Of a DNA stretch of 64,000 bases, positions 31,329-63,043 are shown piece after piece; position 1 is the stretch's first letter; every line of letters begins with the position of its first letter. The stretch is from Mobula birostris (lineage: Eukaryota): positions 62,402,569-62,466,568 of the forward strand of contig NC_092377.1 of assembly GCF_030028105.1 (NCBI RefSeq), given 5' to 3'. Both the position numbers and the translations under genes were made by a program. The notes below the pieces were generated by a model. That model saw only the letters and a list, made by a program, of their open reading frames with translations, did not search any database and had not been told where the DNA came from.

Positions 31329-31454
31329 AATCAACAAGTTGGGCAAATGGAGATGATGATCATATTGTTGCAAGAGCAGAGTATGATTTCACTGCTGGGA
31401 CAGAAGAAGAGCTCTCATTTCGTTCAGGTGATCTGCTCAACCTGGCACCTAAAG
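31329..31454 (+). CDS. PEX13: PEX13 exon 3 (SH3 domain, N-terminal half)
   Basis: ESTSWANGDDDHIVARAEYDFTAGTEEELSFRSGDLLNLAPK; 126 nt; donor G|gtgagt; not in the ORF track. Confidence 0.95.
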
Positions 31455-31974
31455 GTGAGTCATTTGACCATTTAACCAAAGTACCATAACAAAGTAAAAT
31501 GTATAATTTTTTTGGTATATTAACATTGGTGTTACCTACTAAAATTTATAAACTAAACTTGAAAAATAAAAGTTGCCATAATATAAAGTTTGAAAGTACT
31601 TGATGAATCTTTAGGAATTTATTTCCTAAGAAGTAAAATGCTGTTTAGTAGTTTAATGTTTTTAATTTCTTCATCTCTTCATAAAACTGAGAAAGAAAGC
31701 TAAATGTAAAAGTTTGAAGATTATTACAGACTAATTTTTAGAATTGTTTTCTTCCTTCCCAAAAACCAACCACTCACTTTGGGCAGGGAGCTGGATATTC
31801 ATACAGTACTTTAGAGCTGTCAAAATGCTGAGAAGGCTGAAAGTTATTTTCTATTTGACATTTGAAGAACACATCCATCAAGTTCTTTGTTACTGTATGA
31901 CCCAATCTAAATTGTTGTTTTACCTGAATTTGATACTGAGCCAAACATAATTCTTTTGCTTTCTTTCTTTTCAG

Positions 31975-32270
31975 AACAACAGCCAAAAGTGCGTGGGTGG
32001 TTGCTGGCCTGTTTGGATGGCCAAACAACTGGATTAGTGCCGGCTAATTATGTCAAAATTTTAGGTAAAAGGCGGGGCAGAAAGCAAGTGGAGCTGGAAA
32101 GCATTGCAAAGCAACAACCACAGAGACATGGTGATTCAACAGCTGCAGGAACCTCATTCAAGGAACAGCAGGCAGTCTTTGAATCTGCTTTTTCTGAAAC
32201 ATCAAAACAAAATATGGATTCTGGCACCATAGAATCTGTAAATACTGGGAAAGATATAATGAATGCCTGA
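31975..32270 (+). CDS. PEX13: PEX13 exon 4 (SH3 C-terminal half and C-terminus); total CDS 1185 nt = 394 aa
   Basis: EQQPKVRGWLLACLDGQTTGLVPANYVKILGKRRGRK...AVFESAF...stop; strong polypyrimidine acceptor. Confidence 0.97.
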
Positions 32271-36620: not shown

Positions 36621-37622
36621 ATCAAACGATGCTAAAAATGAATATTTTTAATCAACATCATCATGGCTCTTGCACTTGTCTATCTGCACTGCATTCTCGC
36701 TGTAACTGTAGTACTATATTCTGTACTTCCTTTCTATTTCCTTTTCTCCTATGGCCCATTCTCCTCTACTATCAGATTCTTTCTTCTCCTACCCTCTAGG
36801 CTTCTCATATCACCTTCCAGCTAGCCTTCTTTCCTTCTCCCCACTTTTTTATTCTGGTGTCTTCCTCCTTCTACAAATGGTATTTCAGTCCTGGAGAAGT
36901 GCCTCGGTCTGAATCGTCGACTGTTTATTCATTTCCATAGATGCTGCCTGACCACCTGAATTTCTCCAGTATTTTGTGTGTGTGTTACTTTATTCTGAAC
37001 TGTCTTTTTCACTGTCTTGATGAATTGTGTATGAATAATCTATCTGGTTAGTATGCAAAACAAAAAATGTTCTCTTTATCATTGTCACATTTACTGAGGT
37101 AAACCAATACCAGCAGTATTTGTAAACTTTGTCCAGTTCTACAATCATTCAAGATCTTTCTACTCTAATCCTGTCTTTTTAATCATTGATAAGTATCTCC
37201 ACCATAAGTGTCCATGCCTTCAGCTGCCAAATCTCTGATCTTTAGACCCTTCTGCCTCTTCATTTTAGAATGGTCCTTCAAGAATTAAATTTAAATTTGA
37301 ATCCTTTTTGGAGATATATATATGTATTTCTACAACACGCGTTCTAATAATGTTGATTATGGTGGAGTTGGGAGCTGTTCTCTTCCTTGTCTCTAACCTT
37401 GTCCACACTGCTGATTAGTCTTTAATCTTTTTTGGAGGCCTAGATTTGGGTTTTCTAAGTAACTGCCCTCAACAGCAAAACAAAAATTTGTGGTTTGAAC
37501 ATACCACTTGAATTTATAATTATAGAAGCTGCGTAAGATAATTTATGCATGTGATGTTTCAATGTATTTGCTGCAAACTGTTCAAAGCATTGGAAGGTTC
37601 AGTGTGGTTCATCATCTCTTCT

Positions 37623-37685
37623 TTAAAAGTTACTGGTAAGATTGTCTTCAAGGTTCAATGTCAAGCATCTGCAGCTTTTACAGTC
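37623..37685 (-). CDS. Uncharacterised coiled-coil protein, probable terminal coding exon
   Basis: ttttctttag|DCKSCRCLTLNLEDNLTSNF-stop; phase 0; CxxC motif. Confidence 0.55.
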   Translation of the reverse strand, partial: DCKSCRCLTLNLEDNLTSNF

Positions 37686-37729
37686 CTAAAGAAAACCAAC
37701 AAACTGAATAATTATTTGCAAATTGATTA

Positions 37730-39216
37730 AGTACATAGAAAGACAATACAGCATAGGAACAAGACACGAGTGATTGCAGATGCTGGAAATCTATATCAAC
37801 ACAAATGCTGGAGGAATTCAGCATATTAGGCGGCATCTATGTAGGAAAACAAACAGTTGACATTTCTGGCCAAGACCCTTCATCAGTTAGAAATGTTGAC
37901 ACTTCATTTTCCTCCTAGATGTTGCTCGCTCTGGTGAGTTCCAGCTGGAATTTTGTGACAGCACTGAAAAGGCACTACAGCACTCTATCTGTTCCAACAA
38001 TGATGAAGATATAGATTTCACATCTTCCTACACATGGTTTATAATCCCTCCGGTCTTGTATGTTCATGTCTCTCTGAATTGCTACTGTATCTGCTTCCTC
38101 CACCTCCCCTGGTGGCATGTACTATATTTATCTTACAAATATTCCCTCAAATCTCCTTTAAACTTTCTCTCTCGCACCTTAAATCAGGGACTCCCAATCT
38201 TTTTTATGCCACGGACTCCTACTATTAACCGAGGGGTCCATGGACCCCAGGTTGGCACCTCTGCCTTAAATCTATGCCTTCTCGAGTTTGACTTTCCACC
38301 CTGTGGTAAATCTACCCTGTCTACACTTCTCATATACTTCTACCAGGTCGCCCTCTGCCTCAGGCACTCCAGAAAGAACCGTACAACCTCTCCTTAGATT
38401 TCATACTCTCTAATCCAGCAATATTCTTGGTGAGTCTTTACTGCACCCTCATCAGCCTCCATGTCCTTCTGCAATACATGTCACCAAAACTAAACATAAT
38501 ACTCCAAATATGGTCAGACTAAAGTTTTATACAACTGTAACATGACTTCCCAACTTTTATGCTCGATGCCCTGACCAATGAAGCAAATATGCTGCATGCC
38601 TTCTTTGCCACTCACTCCACTTATTTTGCTATTTTGGGAGCTACGTATCTCAAGATCCCTCTGTCAATCAGTGTTCCCAAGTGCCCTAGCATTTACTGTA
38701 TATTTTCCTCCTGCAATTGACCTCCCAAAGTGTAACACTTTACACTTGATGAGACTAAACTTCATTTTCCATTTTTCTGCCCACAGTTCCAACTGGTCTG
38801 TATCCCCCTGTATCCTTTCGCAGAGTTGTGGATAATGAGGAAGATTGTCAATGTTTGTGTCATATGAAAACTTATTAAACAGCCGACCTACATTTTATGC
38901 AAATCGTTTATATGGAATCCTATGGAACACCACCGTTTAAAGACCTCCAAACAGAATTAAACCCATCCACCACTATCTCTATCTTCTATGACCAAGCCAA
39001 TTTTGAATCCAGGTATTAGCCTACCATAAGGAACCTTGTCAAATGCTTAACTAATGTACACACGTACAACTTCCACTGCCCTACTCTCACCAGTCATCTT
39101 TTTCACCTCCTTAGAAAAACTCAATCAGATTTGAAATACATGACATCTCCCTACACAAACCATGCTGACTAACCTTAATAACTCCATGCTATTCCAGAAG
39201 TGAATATATTCCATCT
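37730..39216 (-). mobile_element. Old CR1 fragment hosting nested insertions
   Basis: Degenerate CR1 RT and 3' UTR; resumes at 41878-41905 (revcomp GKLLEKIL). Confidence 0.7.
38185..38263. mobile_element. 79-bp hAT-type MITE
   Basis: CAGGG...CTCTG termini; 8-bp TSD CCTTAAAT at 38177-38184 and 38264-38271. Confidence 0.85.
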
Positions 39217-41869
39217 AGAAAATGAACTGTCAACGTTTCTAACAGCTACAGAAAGGGTGGGTAATGTAGCAGGATCCTCTTTTGAGTCAGTATGGTTGGA
39301 AGTCAGGAACAGGAAGGGAGCAGTTACTCTATTGGGGGTATTCTATAGGCCCCCTGGTAGCAGCAGAGATACAGAGCAGCAGATTGGGAGGCAGATTTTG
39401 GAAAGGTGCAAAAATAACAAGGTTGTTGTCATGGGTGACTTTAACTTCCCTAATATTAATTGGCACCTGATTAGTTCCAAGGGTTTAGATGGGGCAGAGT
39501 TTGTTAAGTGTGTCAAGGACGAATTTCTGTCACAGTATGTGGACAGACCGACTAGGGGGAATGCCATACTAGATCTAGTACTAGGTAATGAACCAGGTCA
39601 GGTCACAGATCTCTCAATGGGTGAGCATCTGGGGGACAGTGACCACCGCTCCCTGGCCTTTAGCATTATCATGGAAAAGGATAGAATCAGAGAGGACAGG
39701 AAAATAATTGGGGAAGGCAAATTACGAGGCTATAAGGCTAGAACTTGTGGGTGTGAATTGGGATGATGTTTTTGCAGGGGAATGTACTATGGACATGTGG
39801 TTGATGTTTCGAGATCTCTTGCAGGATGTTAGGGATAAATTTGTCCCGGTGAGGGAGACAAAGAATGGTAGGGTGAAGGAACCATGGGTGACAAGTGAGG
39901 TGGAAAATCTAGTCAGGTGGAAGAAGGTAGCATACATGAGGTTTGGGAAGCAGGGATCAGATGAATCTATTGAGGAATATAGGGAAGCAAGAAAGGAGCT
40001 TAAGAAGGGGCTGAGAAGAGCAAGAAGGGGGCATGAGAAGGCCTTGGCGAGTAGGGTAAAAGAAAACCCCAAGGCATTCTTCATTTATGTGAAGAAAAAA
40101 AGGATGACAGGAGTGAAGGTAGGGCCAATTAGAGATAAAGGTGGGACGATGTGCCTGGAGCTGTGGAAGTGAGCGAGGTCCTCAGTGAATACTTCTCTTC
40201 GGTATTGACCAATGAGAGGGAACTTGATGATGGTAAGGACAATATGAGTGAGGTTGATGTTCTGGAGCATGTTGATATTAAGGGAGAGCAGGTGTTGGAG
40301 TTATTAAAATACATTAGGACGGATAGGTCCCCAGGGCCTGACCGAATATTCCCCAGGCTGCTCCACGAGGCGAGGGAAGAGATTGCTGAGCCTCTGGCTA
40401 GGATCTTTATGTCCTCGTTGTCCACGGGAATGGTACCGGAGGATTGGAGGGAGGCGAATATTGTCCCCTTGTTCAAAAAAGTTAGTAGGGATAGTCCCGG
40501 TAATTATAGACCAGTGAGCCTTATGTCTGTGGTGGGGAAGCTGTTGGAAAAGATTCTTAGAGATAGGATCTCTGGGCATTTAGAGAATCATGGTCTGATC
40601 AGGGACAGTCAGCATGGCTTTGTGAAGGGCAGATCATGCCTAACAAGCCTGATAGAGTTCTTTGAGGAGGTGACCAAGCATATTGATGAGCGTAGTGCAG
40701 TGGATGTGATCTATATGGATTTTAGTAAGGCATTTGACAAAGTTCCACACAGTAGGCTTATTCAGAAAGTCAGAAGGCATGGGATCCAGGGAAGTTTGGC
40801 CAGGTGGATTCAGAATTGGCTTGCCTGCAGAAGGCAGAGGGTCATGGTGGAGGGAGTACATTCAGATTGGAGGATTGTGACTAGTGGTGTCCCACAAAGA
40901 TCTGTTCTGGGACCTCTACTTTTCGTGATTTTTATTAACAACCTGGATGTGGGGGTAGAAGGGTGGGTTGGCAAGTTTGCAGACGGCTCAATGGTTGGTG
41001 GTGTTGTACATAGTGTAGAGGATTGTCAAAGGTTGCAGAGAGACATTGATAGGATGCAGAAGTGGACTGAGAAGTGGCAGATGGAGTTCAACCCGGAGAA
41101 GTGTGAGGTGGTGCACTTTGGAAGGACAAACTCCAAGGCAGAGTACAAAGTAAATGGCAGGATACTTGGTAGTGTGGAGGAGCAGAGGGATCTCGGGGTA
41201 CATGTCCACAGATCCCTGAAAGTTGCCTCACAACTAGATAGGGTAGTTAAGAAAGCTTATGGGGTGTTCGCTTTCATAAGTCGAGGGATAGAGTTTAAGA
41301 TTCGCCATGTAATGATGCAGCTCTATAAAAATCTGGTTAGGCCACACTTGGAATACTGTGTCCAGTTCTGGTCGCCTCATTATAGGAAGGATGTGGAAGC
41401 ATTGGAGAGGGTACAGAGGAGATTTACCAGGATGCTGCCTTGTTTAGAGAGTATGCATTATGATCAGAGATTAAGGGAGCTAGGGCTTTACTATTTGGAG
41501 AGAAGGAGGATGAGAGGAGACATGATAGAGGTATACAAGATAATAAGAGGAATAGATAGAGTGGATAGCCGGCGCCTCTTCCCCAGGGCACCGCTGCTCA
41601 ATACAAGAGGACATGGCTTTAAGGTAAGGGGTGGGAAGTTCAAGGGGGATATTAGAGGAAGGTTTTTTTACTCAGAGAGTGGTTAGTGTGTGGAATGCAC
41701 TGTCTGAGTCAGTGGTGGAGGCAGATACACTAGTGAAGTTTAAGAGACTACTAGACAGGTATATGGAGGAATTTAAGGTGGGGGCTTATATGGGAGGCAG
41801 GGTTTGAGGGTCGGCACAACATTGTGGACCGAAGGGCCTGTACTGTGCTGTACTATTCTATGTTCTATG
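39217..41869 (+). mobile_element. Young 5'-truncated CR1 LINE (partial APE and RT, ORF 40151-41686), inactivated
   Basis: GVFYRPPG, MGDFN, SDH; long RT ORF; catalytic FADD changed to FADG; frameshifts; (TTCTATG)n tail; TSD TTCCATCT at 39209-39216 and 41870-41877. Confidence 0.96.
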
Positions 41870-42089
41870 TTCCATCTCCAAGAATCTTCTCCAATAACTT
41901 CCCTAAAATTATTGCAGGAAGGATCTTAAACACAAAGTAGTTGTTTAATTGAAATAGTGGGACTTCTGTTGTGAGGGTTAAGTTGAAAAGCTTAAGGAGG
42001 ATCTTGGCAAAGCTATTCAAAATTCATTAATTTTTCCTATTTCATCAAAACCTGTTTCAGTGGTAAGAGTGTTGGTACACTCATTTGTA

Positions 42090-42495
42090 GACCCCAATCA
42101 GTTCAGGTCAGCAACAACATCTCCATGATCTCCATCAGCACAGGTGCACCACAAGCTATGTACTTAGCCCCCTGCTCTACTTGCTTTACACCTATGACTG
42201 TGTGGCTAAGCACAGCTCCAATGCCATATTCAAGTTTGCTGATTCATGAGTCAAATCAAAGATGGTGATGAATCAGCATATATGAGGGAGATTGAAAATC
42301 TGGCTGAGTAGTGTTATAACAACAATCTCTCACTCAATGTCAGCAAGACCAAGGATCTCATTATAGACTTCAGGAGAAGGAAACCAGAGGTCCATGAGCC
42401 ATAATTTTTGCGTATGCCCACAAGAAAATTAATCTCAGGGATGTATATGGTGCCATATATGTACTTTGATAATAAAATTTACTTCAAACTTTGAA
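42090..42495 (+). mobile_element. Rex1/Babar-like RT fragment and tail
   Basis: STGAPQA.VLSPLLYLLYTYDCVA...FKFAD; NNLSLNVSKTK. Confidence 0.8.
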
Positions 42496-42755
42496 AATAC
42501 ATTTAAGATAATTAACAAAAGAAATTGAGGCAAGAAATGGAGATTAGATCTTCTAATTCATCCTTCTAATATTGGTGTTACCAGTAAAGTCAACATTTAA
42601 TACCCATTTCTTCCTCGACCAGTTGTAAATAGCAGGTGCAGGGAGACAGAGGAAAATTCCAGAAGATCCTAGATTCTAAAAGGCAAAACTCGAGTAATTC
42701 TACTGTACTAAGAAACCTACAGTAAAAGAGCTGATAATATCTTGCAAAAATATAC

Positions 42756-42861
42756 CTTTTTGAAAGATTGTTGGAATTGAAGTTTTTTTTGAAGTGTACT
42801 TGCTTCCTCTGTTAAACGTATTATTTCTTTTTTTAGTTCATGCAACTGTTGCTGACGTTCC
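42756..42861 (-). CDS. Uncharacterised coiled-coil protein, coding exon 5
   Basis: ag|G completes Arg, then ERQQQLHELKKEIIRLTEEASTLQKKLQFQQSFKK|gtatat; phase matches exon 4. Confidence 0.8.
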
Positions 42862-43239
42862 CTTTTAAGATCGGGAAAGCATATGAATAACGTACATTTT
42901 AAAGTGAAGAATCAAAGTTTTCTGAATTAGGCTGTCAATGCATTCAAAACATCTTTCCAACCAAAAGAAATAAAGCCCAAAGCTATGGAAGCAGACTGTA
43001 TTTGATTGGTTCAATATCTCTCAAACATCCATTTACAATATTCATATAATATCTCCATTATGTTATCAACTTTTCATGTGCAGAACTTCCTTTTTCCATC
43101 TTCCTGGTTTTTTCTTATACAAAAACACAGCAATATATTAAATATTGCTTCAAAGTATTATTAGTGTTAGATTTTCCTGAGGTATTTATCAACGTGAAGT
43201 TTAGAGCAAGCTATATGTTGTACTGTATGAATCATAAAT

Positions 43240-43850
43240 AGTTAGCAGGCAGGCCCAACATGTAGTTAAGGCAAATGGCACTGTATTTGCAAAGGGGTTA
43301 GAGTTTAAAGACAGGAAGCTATTGTTACAGTTATACAGCATGCTGGCAAGGCCTCATCTGGAATACTGTGCGCAACTTTGGTTTTCTTACCTAAAAAAAG
43401 TGTCACTGAGTGCAGTCCAAAGCAGAGTCACCAGGTTAATTCCTGGTAATGAAAGGGTTGTCCTACTAAGAGAGATTGGACAGTTTGGGTCTATATATTT
43501 CAGACTTAGAAGAATGAGGGGTGACCTTCACATATATGATCCTCGGAAGGCATGACGGGGTAGACATTGTGGTCTTTACATTGGAGGAAAAATCACAAAC
43601 GAGGCATTTCTGCAAAATAAGGGCTGTTTATTTGAAACAGATGAATTGAAATTTCTTCTCAGAGGATACTGAATCTCTGGATTTCTCTGCCCCAGAGCAT
43701 GTTGGAAATGGATAAATATTTGAAAGATGAAGAGATTACAGATTATGGGGAACTGGCCCAAAAGAGAAGCTGTCAGAGCAAAGATCTGCACAAATCATAT
43801 TGAATGCTAGGGCAGGTCTGAGGGGCCTGGACAGCCTGCTGCTATTCTCT
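43240..43850 (+). mobile_element. Old CR1 3' fragment
   Basis: LQLYSMLARPHLEYCAQLW; RRMRGDL. Confidence 0.8.
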
Positions 43851-43997
43851 TGGGTTAATTTGCATAAAGCAAAATATCTGACACAATTCCATTGAAGTGT
43901 TCTTTATTTTTGCTAATCATTTCATTCTTGCTTTCTGTATTGTTCTTTAAGTATACATTTTACTTTTCTCTTGTCCACTTTCTTTGCCTTGCTGTTC

Positions 43998-44445
43998 ATT
44001 TTACTTTACTTTATTGTCGCCAAACAATTGATACTAGAGCGTACAATCATCACGCGATATTTGATTCTGGGCTTCATGCTCCCTGGAGTACAAATCGATA
44101 GTAAATATTAAAAAATTAAATTATTTATCATAAATAGAAAATAGAAAAGGGTAAGTAAGGTAGTGCAAAAAAACCGAGAGGCAGGTCCAGATATTTCGAG
44201 GGAATGGCCCAGATCCGGGTCAGGATCTGTTCAGCAATCTTATCACGGTTGGAAGGAAGCTGTTCCCAAATCTGGCCGTATGAGTCTTCAAGCTCCTGAG
44301 CCTTCTCCCGGAGGGAAGAGGGATGAAAAGTGTGTTGGCTGGGTGGGTCGTGTCCTTGATTATCCTGGCAGCACTGCCCCGACAGCGTGTGGTGTGAAGT
44401 AAATCCAAGGACGGAAGATTGGTTTGTGTGATGTGCTGGGCTCCC
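43998..44445 (-). mobile_element. Rex1/Babar-like 3' end fragment
   Basis: LPSGRRLRSLKTHTARFGNSFLPTVIRLLN; (AAAGT)n tail. Confidence 0.85.
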
Positions 44446-45510
44446 CGAATTTCATAATAAATCCATACACACCCTTGCAAATTTCTTTTGTAATTAATTG
44501 TTTATAGTTATGGACAGCCTTGGATTCTCCCCTCCATCAACATACTCATTCTCCCAAGTAAATGTATTCCTACATTGAATAACTTCTCTTTAAATTCCAC
44601 TCATATTTTCAGATCAAAAATGCAATTAAAGGAATACAATGGGCCCAATCTATGCCCATCTTTATGTGAGATTGTGGATCGTAGAAATCATTTCAGGTCC
44701 CTTCTCTTAACTTTTAGTATTACATTGATGACTATTTTATGTTTATCCCTATATTCTTAAAGAATTCAAACTTTTCCTCACATTTGCCTCCATTTCTACC
44801 TTACTCTTATCAAAGTCAACAATTTTGTATAGTTCTTTTTCACTACTTGTACTAGAACAGGTAATTTCTACCATTACATTGCCCATCTACAAAATTAACC
44901 TAGTTTTTCCTGCTATTGTTTTCCAACATTCTCCTTTTCACTACAGTTCTCTGACATGCACCTCTTAGATTCTGCACATGCTGTGTATCACCTCAACAAC
45001 CCGGAAGCAGCCATTACTGTCCAATGATCATAAAGTGAACTAATCAGATTTTTTATTCAAAACAAAACATTGCAAGCATTAACTTGTGTAACACTGGGGA
45101 ATATAATAACAAATCAGGTTCACTATGAAATACTTTTCAATTTACCGATTTTTGACTACTACCTGAAGAAAGATGAAACAAAAAAATCCAAACTCCTTAA
45201 GTATACCATGTAATATAAATAACACAAACTTGGGAGAGTCTTAATCAAATTTTGTTCTCCGTTGTTACCATTGGGGAGATGTCACAATTGTTTTGGTGTT
45301 TCTATATGACAGTCTACAAACCATGAGCAAATGTAGCATTAGGTTTAATAGCATTATCTCCAACTTAGCAATATCTCTGTTCTAAGTTATTGCCCATGCT
45401 TACATATTTAGGGGAAACACCCAAAGATTGTTAGCACTAATGCAGACATACCCCAGCAGGACTTACTACCTCTAAAAGAATAAGGGAAAAACTTGCACAA
45501 GAAAAAATAC

Positions 45511-45626
45511 CGAGATTTTCCTTGTAGGATTTCTGAAACCTGTTGCTTCAGTTTTCTTATCTTCTCATCTCTACATGTGATTTCTGATGTATTTTCTCTT
45601 GTCATTGTAGCTATTTTTTCTTCATG
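45511..45626 (-). CDS. Uncharacterised coiled-coil protein, coding exon 4
   Basis: Follows an 88-nt intron: HEEKIATMTRENTSEITCRDEKIRKLKQQVSEILQGKS+CG|gtattt (phase 2). Confidence 0.85.
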
Positions 45627-45714
45627 CTATATTAAGCAAACCAAAAGCTTAGTAATTTTGGGATGAAGTGGATTTTGCATAGTCTTCTAAATAGCTGCAG
45701 TGAAATTAACTAAC

Positions 45715-45873
45715 CAACTTCTTGAGATGCTCAGTTTTTTCTTCAAATTCCCTTCTACACTCATGAAGACACTGCAACTTTCCTGCTGCCAATGCTTCAG
45801 CTTGTTTTAATCTTTCTTTTAACTGTTCATGGGATTGTTGTTCAAGTTTAACTAAATCATCGTATTCAGAAAT
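45715..45873 (-). CDS. Uncharacterised coiled-coil protein, coding exon 3
   Basis: ttttttcag|ISEYDDLVKLEQQSHEQLKERLKQAEALAAGKLQCLHECRREFEEKTEHLKKL|gttagt; 159 nt. Confidence 0.85.
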
Positions 45874-47114
45874 CTGAAAAAAAGGTCAACAGACTTATTT
45901 ATTTATTTCTAAAGAAAAACTCCAGTAAACGTTGCAGCCACTACTATTGGTACATTATGTCTGTATCGTGTAAATTGTACTCATACCTTCTGCCCAGTGA
46001 AATATATTTTACAATAGACTTCTTTCATTTTATCTTTTTATTTTCACTGCTCACCATCCTTCCACATAAGAAAAATGATTCACAATGGGTACTATTTGTG
46101 TGAAAACTTTTCCTAATAACCTCTAGTGTGTATAAGAATACAGGCAGTTTGTAGATTAGAACTATCACAGTTGAGTCTGACTTGCTTCACGAATCTTATT
46201 TACCAACAGGGATAACTGGTAATAATGAACACAGGAAACTCTAGCCCTTTTAACCCATTCTGACTAGCATATGATCCTAGCGTCAATCGTTCTGTGCAGC
46301 ATGGAAACAGTTCAACTTGTCCATGTTAACCAAGGTACTTAGCTGAACTAGTTCTATTTGCCTGCATTGGGCCCATAATCAAACCTTTCCAATCCATGTA
46401 TCTGTTTAAATATTGTAATTTTACCAGCCTCTACCTCTTTCCCTGACAGCTCATTCCATATACCCATAACCCTGTACAAACAAGAGCATTGATTTATTAA
46501 ACACAAACATAAAAATCAAAGAAAACTGAAACCATGGTTCTTCAGAGTCTAATTCAATTTGAACTACAGCACACAATGCATTTATCCATCAAACCGTCGG
46601 GAAAAAAAACTCATGCTATTTTTATCTGTCTAATTAAAACAAAGACAAAACAGTCTAGCAGAAGGAGATTTCTTTTTTTAAGTTAACCTTTTTTTCTCCA
46701 TGATAATAATAGCATATGTAATACCCAGGCTGAATCATGTTACATTGAGGTGGGGACAGCGTTCATCATTATACATTATTATCACAATAGTCTTTCCTAG
46801 AGTCTTTTTCTGTAGATTCTTCACACCTTTATACAATCTCTGAAGTTTAGGAGGATGAGAGTTAGCATATCTAGCAGATTTGACTGGATAGAAGCAAGAA
46901 GGGTGCTTACCCTAGGTAAGGAATCTAGAACTGGAGCATCAGTCTCAAAACAAGGGGTACACCAAAGTGGAAATATTTCTTAACTCAGAGTGGTGAAACA
47001 TTGCAATTCTCTGTCCTGGAAGGGTGTAAAAGCTTAAACTTCCATTGCATTCAAATCAGAGACCAATAGATTTCTGGATTTCAAAGAAATCAAGTAATTT
47101 AAGGTACTGCAAAA

Positions 47115-47139
47115 GTGTGTGTGTGTGTGTGTGTGTGTG
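47115..47139. repeat. (GT)n microsatellite
   Basis: About 12 GT units. Confidence 0.95.
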
Positions 47140-47928
47140 CACGCGCACATGACACACGCATGCTCAGGTCAGAGGGGTTTTGTTCATATTCAGAGGGTAG
47201 TGAACCTTTGAAATTCTCTGTTTAAATGGACCGTGTAGACTTGTTTCCTAAGCAGGTTCAAGACAATGATTAATCAACATCAGCAAGAAGGAAAATGCTA
47301 GAATGCTTGGTGATATGATTGAGGCAATAAAGAAATGAGGGGATTAAATAGAGTAGTTTGCAAGAAGCTTTTTCGTTTACCAGAGATCTTAAAAAAAATA
47401 GAGGATATAGATTTAGGGTAAGGGGTGAGCGATTTAGAGGGAATCTGAGGGGTTCCCTTTCAAACAAACAGTGGTGAATTCTGAAATACACTGCCGGAGA
47501 GAATGGTGGAAATCAAGTTATTGACAATATTTATGAATTGTCAAGACAAATACTTCAATCACTTAGGCATAGAAGCTTGGCAATGTATTTTGAAGATGGG
47601 CTTAAAATAGATGGGTGCTCACTAGTCATAGTAATGGGCTGAATAGCCTGTTTCCATGCTGTATGACTCAATGACTCCATATAGATAGAAGTATCAGATT
47701 CTTAATGAATATTTTGGTATTTCTTCCCAAAAGAGAGGTAAGCAATAGTTAAAGCAAACACATGTAAAATATTGGGTGGCATCTTTTCATCTTTGAAGGT
47801 GGATACATTGCTAAATCCAGATGAAGCGTGCCCTTGTCTATTAAAGGAAATTAGAGAGGAAACTGAAGGCCTTTATTACAGTATTTAATTTCTTGCAGTA
47901 TTGACAAATGTTATTATTTAGCACTTAC

Positions 47929-48060
47929 CTTCTGTTGCATTTGTTTACTGATATTGTTTATGGTTACTTCTTTTTCTTTTAGTTGTGATTTTAGCTGTGC
48001 ATTTTCTTTTTCTAGCATACTAATTCTTTCCATCAGTTGTTTTTGATCGTACGTGGGATC
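47929..48060 (-). CDS. Uncharacterised coiled-coil protein, coding exon 2
   Basis: ctgcag|DPTYDQKQLMERISMLEKENAQLKSQLKEKEVTINNISKQMQQK|gtaagt; 132 nt; heptad pattern. Confidence 0.85.
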
Positions 48061-48849
48061 CTGCAGATACATCCATGATTAGTTAATAAATTATTCTGAT
48101 AATCAGGATTTCTGAATGAACTCCCTGAAATGAATAAACCCCTGTAAGATTTATCCATGTAATTTCCAGGCTACTAATTAAGAGTGACTGAAGTTTTCTC
48201 AAATAGTAATAGTTGCTACCATTCACAGAATAATTAGCTCTGAATCAGTTAACTCCACTGACCTTCATACTATTCCATATTTTCAAATATTTACCCAATT
48301 AACATCAAATTATGATTGTGTTCCATCAGCCATGTAAATAAACCATTCATGTTCCTTTTTATAGAGGTACTTCCAAATATTTTCCCTTGAAATTGATTTA
48401 CCAACAATTTTTCAGAGGCCTTTCAAAACTTGTAACCTGAAGATATTGAAATTAACAATATACTTTTATTTTGTAGGCACAAGAGATGTAGATGTGGAAT
48501 CGCGAGCAAAATATAAGCTGCTAGGAACTGAGAGTAAATTTAGGGCCTTGAACCACAGTAATGACTATCTCTTTAGCTCCACAGATGCTGCCTGAAAGGC
48601 TGAGTTCCTCCAGCAGCTTTCTTTTGCTTTAATAAAGATTTCATGATAAAAAAAAAATCAGAGGAATACAACATACAACAAATTCATTTGAGGAAATGAC
48701 ATACATGTTGAAAACCTAAATCATTATTATGTTAATTATGTTAGCACTACAGTAACTGTATCAAAAGCATGAGCAGAAAATAGGTTCCAGTGTAACTAGT
48801 GCCCTAGTGTTGGTTCAAACTTTCAGATACCTGTATGTTTGTCCCACTG

Positions 48850-50985
48850 AAGCAGGGAAAGGATCTTAGGGTGAAGTTGACAAAAGTAGTGGAATATCTA
48901 GTCAAGAGGAAGAAAGAGGCTTAATTAAGGTTAAGGAAGCAAAAATCAGACAGGGCTGTAGGGTTAAAAGGTAGGCAGAAGGAGCTTAAGAATGGCTTTG
49001 GAGAGCTAGAAGGCATTGGCGAGTAGGATTGAGGAAAATCCCAAGGCATTCTACACGTATATGAAGAACAGGAGGGTGATTAGAGTACCAATCAGGGATA
49101 GAAGAGGAAAAATGTGCCCAGAGCTGGAGGAGGTTGGGGAGGTCCTTAATGAATATTTTGCTTCAGTATTCACCAGTGAGAGGGACCTTGACATTTGTAT
49201 GGACAGCATAGGCTGGAACATGTTGACATTAAGTAAGAGAATGTGCTGGAATTTTAAAAGGATATTAGGATAGATAATTCTCCAGGGCCAGATGGAATAT
49301 ATCCAAGGTTCCAATGGGAAGAAATTGCTGTTCCTTTGCTGAGGAACCTTGCATCCTCGCTGACCACAGGAGTAATAACAGATGATTAGAGGGTGGCAAA
49401 TGTTATTCCTTTGTTCAGCAAAGGGACTACGGGTAACCTTGTAAATAATAGGCAAATAAGTCTTACTTCAGTGGTGGGTAAATTATTGCAGAAGATTCTT
49501 AGAGGCATGATTTATATGGATTTGGAAAAGGATAGTCTGAATAGGGATAGAAAGCATGGCTTTTTGAAAGGCATGTTCTGCCTCACAAATCTGACTGTAT
49601 TATTTGAGGATGTGCAAAGTACATTGATGAAGGTAGAGCAGTGGATGTGGTGTATGTGGATTTTATTAAGGCATTTGATAAGCTTCCCCATGATAGGCTC
49701 ATTTAGAAATTTAGGGAGAATGGAAGTCAGGAAAACTTGGCTGTGTGGATTCAGAATTGGCTTGCCCATAGAAGACAGAAGGTGGTTGTAGTTGAAACAT
49801 ATTCTGCCTGGAGTTCAGTAATCAGAGCTGTTCCACAGGCATCTGTTCTGGGTACTCCTGCTTCTGAGATGACTTCCATAACTTGGATGGGGAAGTGGGA
49901 GGGTGGATTAGTAAGTTTTCAGATGACATGAAGGTTGGTGGCATTGTGGATAGTGTAGAAGTTTCATCGAGGCTTATCGGTGGGATGCAGAGCTGGGCTC
50001 AAAGGTGGTAGATGGAGTTCAAACCAGGAAAGTATGAAGTGATTCACTTTGGAAAGATGTATTTGAAGACAGAATATAGGGTTAATGGCAGGATTCTTAG
50101 CAGTGTGGAGGAATAGGGGGATTTAGATCCATAAATCCCTTTAAGTTGTTGTGAACGTTGATAGGTTTATTAAGTAGGCATTTGTATGTCTTCATTAGTC
50201 GGGGGACTGAGTTCAAAAGCTGTGAGGTAATGTTACAGCTTTACAAAACCCAGTTGGAATATCACTTCAGTTCCGGTTATTTATTTATTTAGAGATACAG
50301 TCTAGTAACAGGCCCTTGCATCCCAATGAGTCTGTGCCGCACAATTACACCCATATGACCAATTAACAGACTAACCCATACACCTTTGGGATTTGGGAGG
50401 AAACTGGAGCAGCTGGAGAAAAACCCACACAGTCACGTGGAGAATGTACAAACTCCCCACAGACAACAGCGGGAAATTAAACTGGGTCGCTGACGCTGTA
50501 ATAATGTTATGTTAACCACTACACTACCATGCTGCGTGCCCAAGGTTGCCTCATTATAGAGAATTTGCAAGTTTTACAGAGGGTGCTGAGATTTACGAGG
50601 ATGCTGCCTGGATTGAACAGCATGAATTATGAAGATAGGTTGAGCAAGCTAGGGCTTTTCTCTTGAGAGCTTTTTCCCTGGGTGGAAATGACTAATACGA
50701 AGGGGCATAATTTTATGGTGAGTAAGAGGAAAATATAGCAATGATGTCAGTGGTAAGTTTTTACACAGAAAGTGGTGGGTGGGTGGAATTCAATGCCAGG
50801 GTGGTAGTAGAAGCAGATACGTTAGGGGCATTTAAGAGACTTTTAGATAGACACATAGATGATAGGAAAATAAAGGGCTGTGTGGGAGGAAAGAGTTAGA
50901 TTGAACTTAAAGGAGGTTAAAAAGTAGGTACAGCTTTGTGAGCTGAAGGGCATATACTGTACTGTAATGTTTTATGTTTCAGATG
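48850..50985 (+). mobile_element. Degenerate CR1 LINE (RT to 3' end) with a nested SINE
   Basis: ASRIEENPKAFY; ISLTSVVGKLL; WIQNWL; VPQASVLG. Confidence 0.88.
50280..50544 (-). mobile_element. HE1/V-SINE-like tRNA-derived SINE inserted in CR1
   Basis: A-box-like tagtgtagtgg, degenerate B-box, (TAAA)n tail, GGTT duplicated at both junctions. Confidence 0.75.
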
Positions 50986-51254
50986 TGTTCTTTCTTGTAC
51001 AAATTGTGTACACATTGTTTTTATTGTGAATACTGAGTACATGATGCTATGTATGCATGATGCTGCTGCTGGTAAGTTTTTCATTGCATCTGGGCACATA
51101 TGTACTTGAGCCTATTACAATAAACTCAACTTTGAAGTCAGGTCAGGTGATTGCAAAACATCCTATGAAGTTACATTGAAGAATAGCAAGGTAGTTATTC
51201 TAGGTTCCTGGTTTATTCCTCAAATGGCATCATAATAGACAGCATTTGGGTTAT

Positions 51255-51712
51255 GGGGTCATAGTCCCATCAACCCACACCTGGACCATAGCCCTCCATA
51301 CCCATCCCATCCATGTACATATCCAAGTTTCTCTAAAATGTTGAAATTGTACCTGCATCCACCACTTCCGCTGGAACCTAGCTCCACACTCTCACCGTAC
51401 ACTGAGTAAAAAAGTTCCCTTTCAGGTTTCCTTAAGTATTTTATCTTTCACCCTTAACCTATAACCTCAAGATCTACAGTAGTCTCACCCAACCTCAGTG
51501 GAAAAAACTATCTATATCTCACATAATTTTGTATCCCTCTATCAAATTTCCACTCATTCTCCAATGCTCCAGGGAATAAAGTCTTAACCTATTTAACCCT
51601 TCCCAATAACTCAAATCCTCAAATTTATATCCTTGTTATTTTCTCTGTACTCTTTCAATTTTATTGATATCTTTCTGTAGGTAGGTGAAGAGAACTGCAT
51701 ACAATACTCCAT
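51255..51712 (-). mobile_element. CR1 3' fragment
   Basis: Similar to the 3' end of the 20022-21905 element. Confidence 0.7.
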
Positions 51713-51782
51713 TGAATTACTGTTAACATGTCATTGTCATGTGTAAATTGGATGTAACAAAATTACCACACTATGTGGATCA

Positions 51783-52378
51783 ATGGTGACCCAAGTGCAG
51801 CGCACAGACTTAGTGTCCGGTGAGACGAAGGAGAATTCCAGCCAGGAAGCACCCCACAGAGCTGAAGATCTCTCCGCACTTGAGTCGCCTCAGCACCGAA
51901 CAAAAAACCTAGTGAGTTCCTCTTCGGCTACCCCAATCCATTCGTCAAGGAAAGACAGGATCAGATGGCCTAGATCGTCAGACAACGTCGCCTGGATGCA
52001 GTTTGATGATGATCTAGCCCTGTGGAGATCAGCTGCAGAGGTTTCCCAGCCAAACCAGCATGGCGGTTGTTGTCAGATCTGGGCCTGGACGAAAGGAGCA
52101 AAAAACAAGCAGCTCGTAGGATGGGGGAAGAGGCAGAACGAGCTCCTTGTTGGATTTAGAGTAGGCGAGAGGAGGGGAGCTGGAAGCCAGGAGCAGACGG
52201 GCAGTGATTTGGCCACCACTGCCGGCCCACCAACTGGAGAGTGTCGTGGTTAAGGGTCGAAACACTCAGTGAAAGTTGGGAACCACCTGACGACATCTGC
52301 TCCTGACTGAAGGCTAAGGTTACCTTATAAGGTAACTGGAGAATGCACCCTAACAGGTGTATGTAACAAGTAACAAGT
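51783..52378 (+). mobile_element. Internally deleted Hero/R2-like (RLE-clade) non-LTR retrotransposon
   Basis: N-terminal piece GETKENSSQEAPHRA...RIRWPRSSDNVAWMQFDDDL fused to C-terminal piece PVEISCRGFPA..AWRLLSDLG...EEAERAPCWI*SRR...W; structured 3' UTR; (TAACAAG)n tail. Confidence 0.75.
52188..52305 (+). ncRNA. Hammerhead-ribozyme-like motif in permuted, pseudoknotted order
   Basis: GUC 52243-52245, GAAA 52259-52262, CUGACGA 52287-52293; perfect 6-bp stems I and III plus four more helices. Confidence 0.55.
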
Positions 52379-52687
52379 GACGTACATTAGAAGTTTGCAT
52401 ATTAAAAAGCTTTGTTTGAAACAAAAACCTTTCTTTATGGCACAATTTTCAGAATTACAAATAATCTGAGTTAATCACTTTTCATAACTTTAGGAAACAC
52501 CAGTGTAACAACAATGACATAATTGTCAGGTAAAAATAGATGGCTCAAGATCAAATATTCAAGTAGACGTACTGGCAGACACTAATGAATCAGCATTTCA
52601 CAGAAAGAAATTTGGATTCAAATATTTTGAAGATATTTGAAGGCAATTTTGTTGACAAGTCATGATATAAAGATAATTTTATCTTAC

Positions 52688-52939
52688 TTTAATTGTAGCA
52701 TCTTTAGCAGAAGTTTCATGTTTTTCACTTCCAAAGGTAATTTTCTTTGTATGCCCTTTATGTACTTTAATGGCATCAAAATGTGCAGTCAATGATTTTG
52801 TTTCTGGAATGGGCATGCTTACACCTGATATTCCTGTAAAATCTGGAGGCTCCCTGGTTGATGTATCAGGCTCTGCAGATGTATTTTTGTGTTTCACATT
52901 ACCAGTTGATCTTGTTGCTCCTAATTTCACTTTGGACAT
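52688..52939 (-). CDS. Uncharacterised coiled-coil protein, coding exon 1 (ATG 52939; exon probably starts 53018)
   Basis: aacATG MSKVKLGATRS...SAKDATIK|gtaaga; 84 codons, phase 0. Confidence 0.75.
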
Positions 52940-54439
52940 GTTCAATTTAATGTTAGATATTTATTCACAAATTGCAAAATTAATACCATCAGTCAAGGTC
53001 CTTCTTTGTTGCTTCTTCCTAGTTTGCAAAAGATTCAACACAATAGACAATAAAAATAATGCATTATTCCCTGATTTTAACTTGATTTCTCATGATTAAT
53101 AAATTATGAAGCATGATCAAAATACACATGGGCTGTTTTGAGACCACGCAAACAAAATTAACTTCTAAACTTGGGAAATAGTGTAGACAAAGCTTCTGTA
53201 ATACTTTAATTTCATTCAATGAACATATTATCCCAATATTCAGTTCAGATGAGAGGTCATGGCAGTAAGTGACCTTTTTTTAAAAACAATTAGCAAAGCT
53301 GCCATAATTATCAAGTCACTTATAAGAAATAAGTATGCTCATCTAATTTCCAAGGGATAACAGGGAAAAATATTATTTCATTTTGCAGATGCCATCATTC
53401 AAATCATCAAAGCAAGTGGTGAAGAGCAATGATTTGAGATTAGGGTGGAGTCAACGTAAAACATCTATTAATTGGTGCTGAGAACTAAACGTAGGAAAAT
53501 AAGAGCAGAAGTAGGCCTCTTTCAAGCCTGTCCCATCATTCAATATGACCATGGCTGATCTCTCTTGGGTTTAACTCTTCTGTGCTACTTCCCCATAACC
53601 CTCAATTCTTCAATAGATGTGGGTGATGAATCTACAAGCTATTTGAGGGGTATAGTCTAACATTAGAGGCTATCATTGCCTGTGGCATGATTGCTAAGAA
53701 TATCTTTTTTTTAAATTCTGCATAATTTAAATAAAAAGCTTTGTTTGTTTAGGAACCTAAAAGTTTGGTTGTGAAAAGTTAATTATGTCAATAAAACACA
53801 AGGAGGAGTAGGCTTCTAGAGGCTGCAATGCCATTCAACATTATCATGATTAATCATTGGAGTCAGTGGTGCTTTCTTGTACTCTTCATACCCCTTGATT
53901 CTGAAGGCCTCATAAGTGCAAGTGTCCACAGACCAACAGAGTGAGAGTGTGATGGCGAATTCAAGTGACAGGTAGCATTAAGTTCAGGGTTACCAGGACA
54001 AATGTTGCGTCACTTGAGGGAAAGCACCTGAAGATGGATGGAGGTTTGAATTGGAATGGAAGTGTGGGAATATCCTTTCATCTTTTTTCCTTCCCACTAT
54101 CCAGGAATCCGAACAGACTCCCCAGATGAAGCAATTCACTTGCACTTCCTTCTATTTTGTGTATTGTATTCAGTATGCATAATATAGTTTCCTTTACAAT
54201 GGAGAGCACAGATTGGGTGATCAGCTTTTAGAGCACTTGTGTTCTGATAATCTGATTACTTTGTCTGTATCAGTTGACCATCCGTGATTTTGGCCCAGTC
54301 TGTGACGACACCCGCCCAGCCTAACACTTTTTTTTCTGGAGGAAGAGCAAATAACTGGCCTGACCTGCCAATTATGTCTTCCTGCTATGCAACTCACAAC
54401 TCCTACATTCTTCATTCCAGATTATCATTCTCTAACTGC

Positions 54440-54900
54440 TACCAAAGACTGGATAGTCCAGGGCTGTTTTCCCTGGAGCAGAGACTTGATGCGCTGCTTT
54501 CCTTGGGAAGAGGGAAGCTGAGGGATAACCTTATAAGAGGTTTATAAAGTCATAATGGACATAGATAAATTGGGTGACTAAAGTTCCCCCCCCCCCCCAG
54601 GAGTTTTAAAACAGGAAGACGTAGGTTTAAGCTGAGAAGGGAAAGATTTAAAGGGGAACAGAAGGATTTTCCCCTCACAATGGGGGTCACAGGTATGTGG
54701 AACGAACAAAGGAAGTGGTTGGTCGTGGTAGGTAAAATTACAACATGTAAAACACACTGAGAAGAACGTGGATAGGAAATCTTAGATGGATACAGGCCAA
54801 ATATAGGCTAATGGGACTGGTCGGAAAGCTCTTCAGTCGGCATTGATGAAATGGCCCGGAGGTTTGTTTCCATGTTGTGTAACTCTGTGGCTCTATTCTC
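54440..54900 (+). mobile_element. Old CR1 3' fragment
   Basis: GLFSLEQR...LRDNLI; CR1-type 3' UTR. Confidence 0.7.
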
Positions 54901-55435
54901 TCATTGACAAATTAATCCTGTTTACAGCACATCTCCATGTTCCCTTGGGCTTTTACCTCATTAGAGATATTTTCCTCCCCTTCTCCATCCTGTTTAACGA
55001 TTTCCTTCCCACTATTGACGAAGTATCTTCGCCTTGAAAGGGAGACTATGTTTCTCTTCCCACGAATGCGACCTGACCTACTATTTCCAACATTTTCTGC
55101 TTTTATTCTGAGATTTCTAGTATTTACAGTCTTTTCTGCTTTTCATTCAGTGATGCCCTTCACTTCCGCATCGCTGCCAAGTTCATGCGCACGCGCAGTC
55201 TTAGCACCCGTTACTACCACCGCAACATGTGAAGCACATCAAGTTTTAAAAGACACAGGGGAAAGAAAAAGCAACACCGTTTTATGTTGAAAAATTACCA
55301 TTTCTTAGCGTGGACTAATGTCGTTAGTAAAAATCTGAATACATAAAACCAGAAAATCTTAATGTTAATAAGGGAATACCAAAAGACAAAATGCTGGAGA
55401 TGTTTGTAAGAAGGTGGCGATTAACAACTGACTGG

Positions 55436-55777
55436 GTAACGGGGTGGAGTACCAAAGGCGGTGTAAGGCGCCCCTTCCCTCCGCTCGCCTGCAGGCCACC
55501 CTTGGGCAAGGCGCAGCACCTGCTTAGCCCCCCAGTCAGGGTCATATGAAGTATTGGGGGCAGGTGGTGTATGGTCCTGGTTATGTGACCACTGGCGCCA
55601 GACAATTTCTGACCGCTGGTGGGGGGGGGGGGGTCACCCGTCTATTAAAGAAACTGCCCAAAAGAAAGCATTGGTAAATCACTTCTGCAGAAAAATCTGC
55701 CAAGAACAACCATGATTAAAGACAAATGATCACCCACGGTTATACGACGCGGCAAATAACGATGATGATGATGATGA
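55436..55777 (+). mobile_element. RTE-associated SINE-like element
   Basis: RTE/Bov-B-like gaaagcattggtaaatcacttc motif and (GAT)n tail. Confidence 0.6.
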
Positions 55778-55873
55778 CAAGTTAATTACAACTCTAAAAG
55801 GGTCCTTGCATAGTTCGCTTTAGAGATTCCCCAAAGCCTGGAGTCGCATTGAAGGGCTTTTGAGATCATTTAC

Positions 55874-56600
55874 CTGTTTACTCCTTAAAATACTGGCAGC
55901 TCAGTACACCTTGAGAACTTTCTGAGAGACAGACCCCCCCAATCAGAACAACTGACTGAAACCTCCTTTTATAACCACGGCCTTCTTTTCCGCATTGAGC
56001 TCCTCTCACAGTGCGGTTGCCTAGTTACCCGAACGCCGACCTTGCTGCACTGCGGCTCCGGTCCGCAGAGCCAAGGGGAAGCTGAATACTGCGACGCGTA
56101 AAACCAGACGCCTTCGCTGCCAATCAACCGCCGGCCCAAAAGCCCCGCCCGCAAACTGGCGCGCCAATTGGACCAATGTCGGCCCCCGTTCGTAGAGCTT
56201 CCGGCCCCTTCCCGTTGCCAGGGTGAATCTTGCCTTTGATTGGTTGCTCGGTATGCCAATCAGAAGGGCAAGTTTGGCCCTCCTGCGCTTGTTCGTCCGG
56301 GCGGTTGATCTGATCCATGTTTGGTGCAGGCATTGTGGAGTAATGGCTGGAACTGGGTAGCAATACAAGGAAGATACGCTTTTTAAAAAAAACATTAAAG
56401 AAACAGCACTGCGAATTTAGAGGATGTAGTTTTGCGGTGGTATGTAGTTGGCGTATTTGCTGCAGTTCGAGCAGAAGGAACAGGGAGAAACCACCGATTG
56501 GCTTCACAGCCGCCGCTGTGAGTTGGTGCTGTTGAGGTGGAGGAGAGAACACGATGTCGTTTGGCTATACTAGACAAGTAGTTTTGAGTGAAGTGGATTG
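55874..56600. promoter_or_regulatory. Bidirectional CpG-rich promoter of the coiled-coil gene (minus) and SANBR (plus), with probable non-coding first exons
   Basis: CpG-rich; CCAAT/ATTGG at 56120, 56164-56171, 56173, 56239, 56256; GC box 56142-56150; ETS CTTCCGG 56198; X-box-like 56016 and 56214; minus-strand donor cag|gtaaat at 55873. Confidence 0.75.
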
Positions 56601-58794: not shown

Positions 58795-58868
58795 TGCCTA
58801 TCCACATTGTTTCTCCCTAATTATTTCACTGGATTGAAGTAATTTGGAAGAAACAATGTGGATAGGCA
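58795..58868. repeat. Near-perfect inverted repeat (34-bp arms, 6-nt loop)
   Basis: 31/34 arm identity; outer 20 bp perfect. Confidence 0.92.
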
Positions 58869-60882: not shown

Positions 60883-61034
60883 ATGAGTCATGCGAGTTCA
60901 GTAAATACCCCATTTCTTTATGAGAAGCAAGGATTGGTGCTGGACATGATTCTCCGCTCTATGTTAGGAGTAGCCCAGCCTATCACCTGGGAAGGAGTAG
61001 CTAAACTCTCATACCAGGAGTCACAGCCAAACAG
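60883..61034 (+). CDS. SANBR: SANBR (KIAA1841) first coding exon, with an apparent 2-bp insertion at ~61006-61010
   Basis: MSHASSVNTPFLYEKQGLVLDMILRSMLGVAQPITWEGVAKL/IPGVTAKQ matches recalled human [33 protein letters not shown]; acceptor ends 60866, donor at 61035. Confidence 0.9.
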
Positions 61035-62862: not shown

Positions 62863-63043
62863 TGTGCCAAGAGATTTGAAGAGCTGAGAGGCAATGGAAT
62901 CATGCCCCATATTTGTGATGAAAACAAATGTGAAGAGAAGCCATCTAAATCATTGACCACATATATTAAATCATCGCTTTTGGACAATGAAGATGATGAA
63001 AAAACTCGGTTATCTGTAGTGCAGAACAGCACTTCCATATCAG
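62863..63043 (+). CDS. SANBR: SANBR second coding exon; the gene continues beyond the window
   Basis: ttgcag|CAKRFEELRG...LTTYIKSSLLD...|gttagt; matches recalled human CAKRFDELK...LATYIKSSLLD. Confidence 0.92.

Follow-up and report, generated by a model that had tools for sequence, protein, structure and literature searches.

What lies between PEX13 and SANBR in the genome of the ray Mobula birostris, and what could it do? In a stretch of 64,000 nucleotides (nt) of contig NC_092377.1 (RefSeq assembly GCF_030028105.1, forward-strand positions 62,402,569 to 62,466,568; hereafter the window), a first-pass annotation had proposed, from the letters alone, that this interval holds an intact, unrecognised gene for a coiled-coil protein, old and lost in mammals. 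We find that the gene is real and spliced and that, judged by its homologues, it belongs to an old, unnamed, animal-wide protein family, from cnidarians to squamates. On balance, we favour the view that it is a functional gene; its product would be a rod-shaped dimer, clasped by zinc and bearing a conserved binding surface, that serves as a tether or adaptor.

The gene is a chain of six coding exons on the minus strand, flanked by a 5' untranslated region (UTR) and a likely 3' UTR:

54957..55184, minus strand: non-coding first exon, seen in contigs X5-22 and X2-7 of the RNA runs, with a GT donor at 54956; its 5' end is a contig end, not a mapped start site
53019..54956, minus strand: 5'-UTR intron of 1938 nt, GT..AG, from X5 contig 22 and the splice-site letters, with the acceptor at 53019
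52688..53018 (coding 52688-52939), minus strand: exon with 79 nt of 5' UTR and residues 1-84, ATG at 52939; basic, predicted disordered head
47929..48060, minus strand: coding exon 2, residues 85-128, where the long coiled coil begins (frame, tblastn, heptads)
45715..45873, minus strand: coding exon 3, residues 129-181, coiled coil (frame, tblastn, homologue search)
45511..45626, minus strand: coding exon 4, residues 182-220, first half of the signature, E-I-x-x-R-D-x-K-I-x-x-L-K-x-Q (frame, tblastn, alignment)
42756..42861, minus strand: coding exon 5, residues 220-255, second half of the signature, S-x-E-R-Q-x-Q-L-E-E-L-x-K-E-L, the most conserved block (frame, alignment)
37623..37685, minus strand: coding exon 6, residues 256-275, with the CxxC codons at 37682 and 37673, a short second helix and the stop TAA (frame, tblastn)
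37172..37622, minus strand: likely 3' UTR, with ATTAAA at 37426 and 37183; X5 contig 17 lies on 37172-37588 (0 mismatches, 1 gap), is not joined to the gene and may be DNA

Joined, the coding exons give a frame of 828 nt, or 275 residues and a TAA, with zero internal stops, and the five introns between them (4627, 2055, 88, 2649 and 5070 nt) are all GT..AG, with phases 0, 0, 0, 2 and 0. All coordinates and phases of the first-pass exon chain were thus confirmed; its six coding exons were complete, while the non-coding first exon (55184-54957) had been missed. Most exons had rightly been called invisible to the list of open reading frames (ORFs): stop-to-stop ORFs of at least 70 residues contain only exons 1 and 4 of the six. 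Using the sawfish (Pristis pectinata) protein as a query, tblastn found all six exons in order, with E values from 1e-45 to 5e-5, and the ray product aligned gap-free to this protein, which is of equal length and identical at 233 of 275 positions (85%). A 53-residue exon query matched six batoid proteins. An artefact or chance exon chain is rejected by the intact frame, the ordered tblastn matches and the gap-free sawfish homologue, because homologous proteins exist. The expected heptad coiled coil of about 170 residues was recovered: L/I/V/M residues recur with a period of 3.58 over residues 88-255, a periodicity reached by 0 of 1000 shuffles. The expected C-terminal CxxC is Cys257/Cys260, with 15 residues after the second Cys. 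Residues 1-84 displayed no heptad periodicity (900 of 1000 shuffles were as high); this head is basic (isoelectric point, pI, 9.7) and predicted disordered, but not of low complexity as first described, with one twelve-residue window below 2.5 bits. The 21 nt before the ATG (52940-52960, minus strand) resemble the N-terminal extension of shark homologues, and where sharks have their start codon, 21 nt upstream of the ATG used, the window has ATA; batoids start at the second methionine of the shark-type N-terminus.

Is the gene transcribed? Six sequencing runs, none recorded as RNA, share 0.03-0.04 of the sampled words of 42500-52499, approximately the fraction of that interval occupied by four exons, and four of the six were aligned. 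X5 contig 22 (592 nt, 0 mismatches) aligns to 54956-55184 and then to 53017-52687, skipping a 1938-nt GT..AG intron, with its last 31 nt unaligned. X2 contig 7 covers 55003-55167, and an X2 contig has a similar unaligned 5' part at 53017. X5 contig 22 represents a spliced transcript whose first exon is non-coding. The search for junction reads, suggested by the first-pass annotation, was therefore successful in the 5' UTR; coding exons 3-5 are barely covered in the four runs, so that coding-exon junctions were not directly seen there, which says nothing either way. Skate-like Logan records of 232 and 261 residues sit on contigs of 1.0-1.8 kb, too short for introns, and coding-exon splicing is therefore supported in a relative. 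Contig depth in the four runs, a poor measure, was 3-8 on the coiled-coil gene and 20-65 on the SANBR side. In the reading that we favour, the gene is weakly expressed. Isoforms were apparent in other species. Skate records P0005 and P0006 end a few residues past exon 4 (45492-45510, minus strand), by apparent read-through into intron 4, and so have neither the CxxC nor the best-conserved block; in this cluster, 11 of 15 listed records are 232 residues long. Of the two axolotl records P0014 and P0020, one isoform omits, in frame, exactly a 43-residue segment comprising the CxxC and most of the second helix.

To what family does the protein belong? A profile of 8 homologues, searched against 1.84 billion representatives, returned 158 matches at E<=0.001 and 83 at E<=1e-10. 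Almost all full-length matches cluster at about 300 residues, indicating that the family is compact and that generic coiled coils do not swamp the list. Members were named through word-index searches and 27 exact look-ups. The named vertebrates are rays, skates, sharks, sturgeons, paddlefish, gar, bowfin, bonefish, coelacanth, lungfish, a caecilian, salamanders, frogs and two squamates; the named invertebrates are sea urchin, Phallusia, abalones, a bdelloid rotifer, an acoel and Nematostella. The ray product is 89% identical to the protein of Hypanus sabinus, 85% to that of Pristis pectinata and 68% to that of a sevengill shark, and its pairwise blastp E values were 6e-175 with sawfish, 2e-56 with paddlefish, 2e-38 with axolotl, 2e-19 with abalone, 3e-16 with Nematostella and 2e-14 with sea urchin. 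Gene models of the family include LOC127568712 (P. pectinata, XP_051868730.1), LOC132402916 (H. sabinus), LOC117402248 (Acipenser ruthenus), LOC106705830 (Latimeria), XP_001200412.3 (sea urchin) and XP_032239119.1 (Nematostella). They carry at least a dozen unrelated automatic names, among them golgin A6-like, CAGE1-like, trichohyalin-like, myosin-7-like, CEP83-like, MNS1-like, CLIP1, KIF3A-like, ELKS/ERC1, CCDC136-like and GCC2. No Pfam family describes the members: 56 members matched 21 families at E<=0.001, none above generic coil noise, and membership in any of them was rejected, as each was matched in at most 5 of the 56, by generic coils. The ray gene is thus already annotated in relatives but uncharacterised; "unrecognised" was apt in that there is no Pfam model and the names are meaningless, and went too far in that RefSeq models exist in rays, sharks, fishes and amphibians. 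A full-text literature search with six family identifiers, all automatic gene models, found no paper, and neither did searches by locus synteny, gene loss, Xenopus genes with no mammalian orthologue or ciliated epidermis, which mostly left subscription journals outside; sea-urchin or anemone cilia proteomes could list the gene.

In a quick tree of 90 rows (the careful tree search being unfinished), all named vertebrates fall into one clade of 30 rows (support 98), of which they make up 22; by tree and best match, the other 8 group with sharks, ray-finned fishes, frogs or squamates. Intron positions extend this relationship. Among 47 short database fragments, 19 match the limits of exon 5 and 5 those of exon 4; 18 of the 19 are nearest to invertebrates and all 5 to abalone, and for 23 of these 24 the nearest member is from abalone or Nematostella, the taxa of the fragments being deduced from best matches only. 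Intron positions common to the ray and invertebrate-like fragments support animal-wide orthology, so that "old", as the gene had been called, was an understatement. A divergent clade (P0133, P0147, P0153, P0164 and P0169) aligned to the family with an hhalign probability of 97.4 (E 9e-12); it has different apparent exon limits, keeps the CxxC in P0133 and may be non-animal, and in a metagenome scan for its context 0 of 593 pattern matches was a relative. Internal duplications were also seen, with the signature block present twice in P0121 (557 residues) and two CxxC units in the frog model P0074; P0057 is listed with them. The rotifer model P0090 carries an SCOC (DUF2205) domain ahead of the family sequence, as an extra N-terminal piece that is absent from the close relative P0087; this domain was matched in 2 of 56 rows, P0090 being one, and P0090 is probably two fused gene models.

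We then asked what the conserved parts of the protein might form. In an alignment of 56 rows, picked for full length and hence biased to intact ends, the best-conserved parts are the exon 4-5 block, the two cysteines of the CxxC (55 of 56 and 56 of 56) and a C-terminal E-L-x-x-x-C-x-K-x-E-x-Q-L-x-Q-Q-D. An unbiased count by regular expression found the CxxC in 68 of 73 proteins having the core motif and at least 48 further residues, and 2 of the 5 misses carry it just beyond the scanned range. The motif lies about 40 residues past an invariant Ser, and is present in the ray protein. An AlphaFold2 model of the paddlefish member, with a mean predicted local distance difference test score (pLDDT) of 82.9, shows no secondary structure in residues 1-70, a helix at 71-240, a break at 241-247 and a second helix at 248-306, which starts at the CxxC. 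A two-copy model of paddlefish residues 170-307 with zinc scored 0.51, against 0.13 for the best of 3 controls; the runs agree in at least 90% of contacts, with a pLDDT of 74-75. Of 30 solved pairs from microbes, 21 attained the dimer mark in calibration, as against none of 23 single chains; for eukaryotes the figures were 17 of 29 pairs (7 of 16 from animals) and 0 of 30 single chains. The contacts are in register and parallel, at residues 183-208 and 247-296, and include Cys247 and Cys250, with a Cys250-Cys250 contact at 1.5 A expected error; zinc was included in the model but unscored. Residues 209-246, the most conserved block, lie outside the confident dimer contacts. The helix-break-helix and the homodimer are thus predicted features, and zinc binding and an adaptor role are our inference. 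In the arrangement that we favour, a basic, disordered head of about 85 residues would precede a rod of about 170 residues that would dimerise as a parallel, in-register coiled coil; after a short break, the CxxC would cap the second helix and form a two-chain zinc clasp. The exon 4-5 stretch just before the hinge, which is the most conserved one, would be the likely partner-binding surface, so that the protein would serve as a tether or adaptor of about 25 nm, with no enzymatic role.

Several observations weigh against this picture of a functional, zinc-clasped rod. The sole junction seen directly in contigs of the RNA runs is that of the 5' UTR, the other five resting on homologous gene models, and the run type (RNA) is itself a program's guess; contig X2-5 runs from exon 1 into intron 1, and therefore unspliced RNA or DNA is also present. 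The 307-nt spliced 5' UTR (52940-53018 and 54957-55184) holds six upstream ATGs, whose frames are 3-29 codons long and all close before the main ATG; translational damping is possible. The dimer model is that of the paddlefish protein, whereas the ray protein keeps just the 15 residues after its second Cys, and the Hypanus models and 3 squamate-clade models stop before the CxxC. Coiled coils may pass the dimer mark through their likeness to solved structures, with zinc unscored. As regards solved relatives, no solved chain matched the signature block in a sequence search of PDB chains (best 60 of 172 matches). The best of these matches were generic coils at profile positions 23-223, and fold searches gave long-helix matches only, with Z scores up to 9.0 at a root-mean-square deviation of 38 A over 239 residues; a solved relative, by sequence or by fold, is rejected. 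The BLASTP and fold checks recommended for the assembled protein therefore parted ways, the former yielding uncharacterised homologues and the latter long helices only.

The short C-terminus raises the question of whether the ray gene is on its way out. After the second Cys, 15 residues are left in the window and in sawfish, 1 in two skates, 11 in three sharks, 29 in Heptranchias and 21 in one further chondrichthyan-clade row, whereas 40-59 follow in 18 of 20 other members measured, with 24 in bowfin and 30 in the tailed frog; all these lengths are taken from gene models, in which some ends could be misannotated. The ray protein is therefore short of the second helix of about 50-59 residues found in the family. 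In cartilaginous fishes and squamates, the C-terminus looks as if it had eroded in steps, and the ray protein, its helix after the hinge being shortened, may no longer perform all of the ancestral function. A frameshifted relic of the missing tail, visible by eye behind the stop, was rejected: it was equalled in 26 of 300 shuffles and in 21 of 300 non-coding stretches, and it is not counted because it is not significant. A gene that is decaying, in frame and transcribed but heading for loss like the squamate copies, would account for the fact that all 8 measured chondrichthyan-clade models with a CxxC keep only 1-29 residues after it and that Hypanus ends before it, as well as for the ATA at the shark start codon and the six upstream ATGs. 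We consider it improbable, as the frame is open across six exons with an intact signature block, identity is 85-89% among batoids and 68% to the sevengill shark, and the relic does not stand up.

Has the gene been lost in mammals, as proposed at first? No named mammal or bird is found among the profile matches, and none of the 30 vertebrate-clade rows looks mammalian or avian, with the limits that most invertebrate-side rows are without names, that unannotated or decayed copies are invisible to a protein search and that a turtle, crocodile or bird protein more than 50% identical to a representative would be hidden. In humans the gene order is PUS10, PEX13, KIAA1841 (SANBR), C2orf74 (PMC6011332), which agrees with loss at the locus. 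In the X. laevis tables, the PEX13-KIAA1841 gap is 19.8 kb, with no gene among the rows listed, all of which are keyed to human Ensembl identifiers. PEX13, KIAA1841 and SANBR are all absent from the supplements of two screens for lost genes (PMC10416458, 8 files; PMC6871517, 1 file), although an unrecognisable identifier for the gene is conceivable. Loss in mammals is consistent with every search, but not proven.

Where could such a protein act? The neighbourhood offers some indications:

23242..32270, plus strand: PEX13 coding exons, the convergent neighbour (Pfam Peroxin-13_N, E 7e-48, and SH3_9)
56254..63043, plus strand: SANBR (KIAA1841), the divergent neighbour, with a leader from about 56254 and coding exons at 60883-61034 and about 62863-63043 (contigs X3-16, X2-8, X5-23 and X6-31)
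55162..55197, no strand assigned: NRF1-type site (55186-55197) and ETS-type site (55162-55169) in the CpG-rich patch at the coiled-coil gene's own 5' end
56016..56028, minus strand: single full match to the RFX X-box in the CpG island common with SANBR

Both flanks had been named correctly, PEX13 by its Pfam domains and SANBR by its first coding exon and the next, which translate to the N-terminus of mouse SANBR as given in a supplement of PMC8141524; PUS10 (Pfam) lies beyond PEX13. A CpG island at 17500-18750 marks the likely shared promoter of PUS10 (minus strand) and PEX13 (plus strand). The coiled-coil gene and SANBR stand head-to-head across two CpG-rich patches, about 1.1 kb apart, since contigs running rightwards from about 56254 mark the SANBR leader; the window therefore holds two successive head-to-head gene pairs.

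Our best single guess for the site of action, a tentative one, is the basal body or the motile-cilium and sperm-tail system, ranked ahead of meiotic and general trafficking roles. All named carriers of the family are animals known to have motile cilia. The partner in the head-to-head pair, SANBR, belongs to the tubulin poly-glutamylase complex as a subunit (PMC13376646) and is a core multiciliated-cell gene, 14.6-fold up in Xenopus (adjusted P 2.6e-10) in a supplement of PMC5245798. A ciliary or germline role had initially been read as possible from X-box-like motifs, in the plural, but the motif itself does not support it: several X-boxes are rejected, as the promoter region contains one full match only. 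The whole window has 4 full matches, and the one in the promoter has a P of about 0.09 against 1000 first-order resamples; half-sites number 7, with 3.9 expected (P 0.09). The full match lies at a distance of 838 bp from the mapped 5' end of the coiled-coil gene, and 232 bp separate it from the SANBR-side contig. SANBR, which is nearer and is itself a multiciliated-cell gene, accounts for it better; the match allows co-regulation of the two genes without showing it. To this argument against a ciliary role are added the housekeeping-type NRF1/ETS sites at the gene's own 5' end, the NRF1 pattern having its sole match of the window there (reached by 0 of 1000 resamples), the possession of motile cilia by mammals, which seem to be without the gene, the lack of a solved chain that matches the signature block, among the best 60 of 172 PDB matches, and the Atlas neighbours, centrosomal coiled coils that share at most 147 of 256 features. 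A fuller version of the ciliary idea describes a zinc-hinged component of motile cilia, of cnidarian-bilaterian age, that an RFX promoter common to both genes would co-regulate with SANBR. Animals whose larval or embryonic skin is ciliated (invertebrates, amphibians, lungfish, sturgeons) would have retained it whole, and in cartilaginous fishes, squamates, most teleosts, birds and mammals it would have been eroded or lost in separate events. We regard this as unlikely; the link of the family to ciliated skin was unconfirmed by the literature search.

The same housekeeping-type promoter elements would suit a general cytoplasmic tether or motor adaptor of the golgin, Hook or BICD kind, unrelated to cilia and only incidentally next to SANBR, as would the rod of about 170 residues and the many automatic names, which suggest a golgin/CLIP/ELKS-like composition. 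However, these names conflict with each other and mirror generic coiled-coil likeness, none of the GRIP, CAP-Gly or CC1-box families gave a match, and a housekeeping adaptor would be expected to survive in mammals; we think this decidedly unlikely. The third location to consider is the germline, where the protein could be a chromosome-structure component (meiotic axis, synaptonemal complex or break-repair accessory) whose basic head, of pI 9.7, could touch DNA. Meiotic structural proteins typically change fast in sequence and are lost in a patchy manner, the low contig depth fits tissue-restricted expression, if weakly, and the architecture matches the coil-CxxC-coil of the CtIP N-terminus (PMC8205527). 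Against this, no Pfam family, CtIP_N or meiotic families included, is found in more than 5 of the 56 members, and those few matches are to generic coils; a germline role seems doubtful, and we hold it unlikely.

The window also contains fragments of reverse-transcriptase retroelements, at 40139-41686 (plus strand) and at 20023-21847, 48838-50250 and 27441-28319 (minus strand), with copies about 68-69% alike, which by their appearance we take to be CR1/L2-like and Penelope-like. The fragment at 40139-41686, in intron 5, has an open frame of 515 codons and very deep contig cover. An exact 81-nt tandem duplication inside a retroelement fragment, at 17177-17339, is a recent duplication or an assembly artefact.

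Taken together, these results describe a candidate ancient animal gene lost on the way to mammals. The family has been invisible as a family because pipelines scatter its members under a dozen false names and no Pfam model exists, and screens anchored on human genes skip it. If the ciliary role is true, the protein would be a component that mammals do without, and that human-anchored cilia screens could not have seen; if not, it would still be a useful case of gene loss and annotation. The family is testable in Xenopus-type, sea-urchin and Nematostella systems. Its architecture, a coiled coil with a CxxC hinge, is already known in kind.

How does it compare with known systems of this kind? The nearest Atlas clusters by features (0.92-0.94) are CEP162, ODF2, CCDC77, CCDC89, ninein and CEP128, with which the family has a long helical rod in common. 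It differs from these centrosomal and ciliary coils in that the shared features stay below the 170 typical of true family matches and no Pfam family is matched, the likeness being generic. With respect to axonemal doublet proteins solved by cryo-electron microscopy, no match covered the signature block, and the best matches were generic coils. In the Rad50 zinc hook, a CxxC at the apex of an antiparallel, intramolecular coil of an ABC-ATPase is completed by a second chain. The family resembles it in having a CxxC at a coiled-coil break, completed by a second chain, and differs in that its model is parallel and intermolecular, without an ATPase head. Closer in kind is the N-terminal coiled coil of CtIP (RBBP8), where, according to Morton et al. 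2021 (PMC8205527), two cysteines per chain at the C89xxC92 hinge share one zinc and bend a parallel coiled coil. The differences are that there is no sequence match, that no tetramerisation motif or Sae2/CtIP C-terminal domain was detected, and that the hinge is near the C-terminus of a protein of about 300 residues, in which zinc binding is putative. No CtIP N-terminal or Sae2/CtIP C-terminal family is among the 21 Pfam families matched by the 56 members, and no CtIP chain is among the best 60 of 172 PDB sequence matches. The likeness, predicted for the paddlefish member, is that of a parallel dimeric coiled coil broken by a CxxC and flanked by two coil segments. By prediction, then, this family works like the CtIP zinc hinge, while being neither CtIP nor Rad50.

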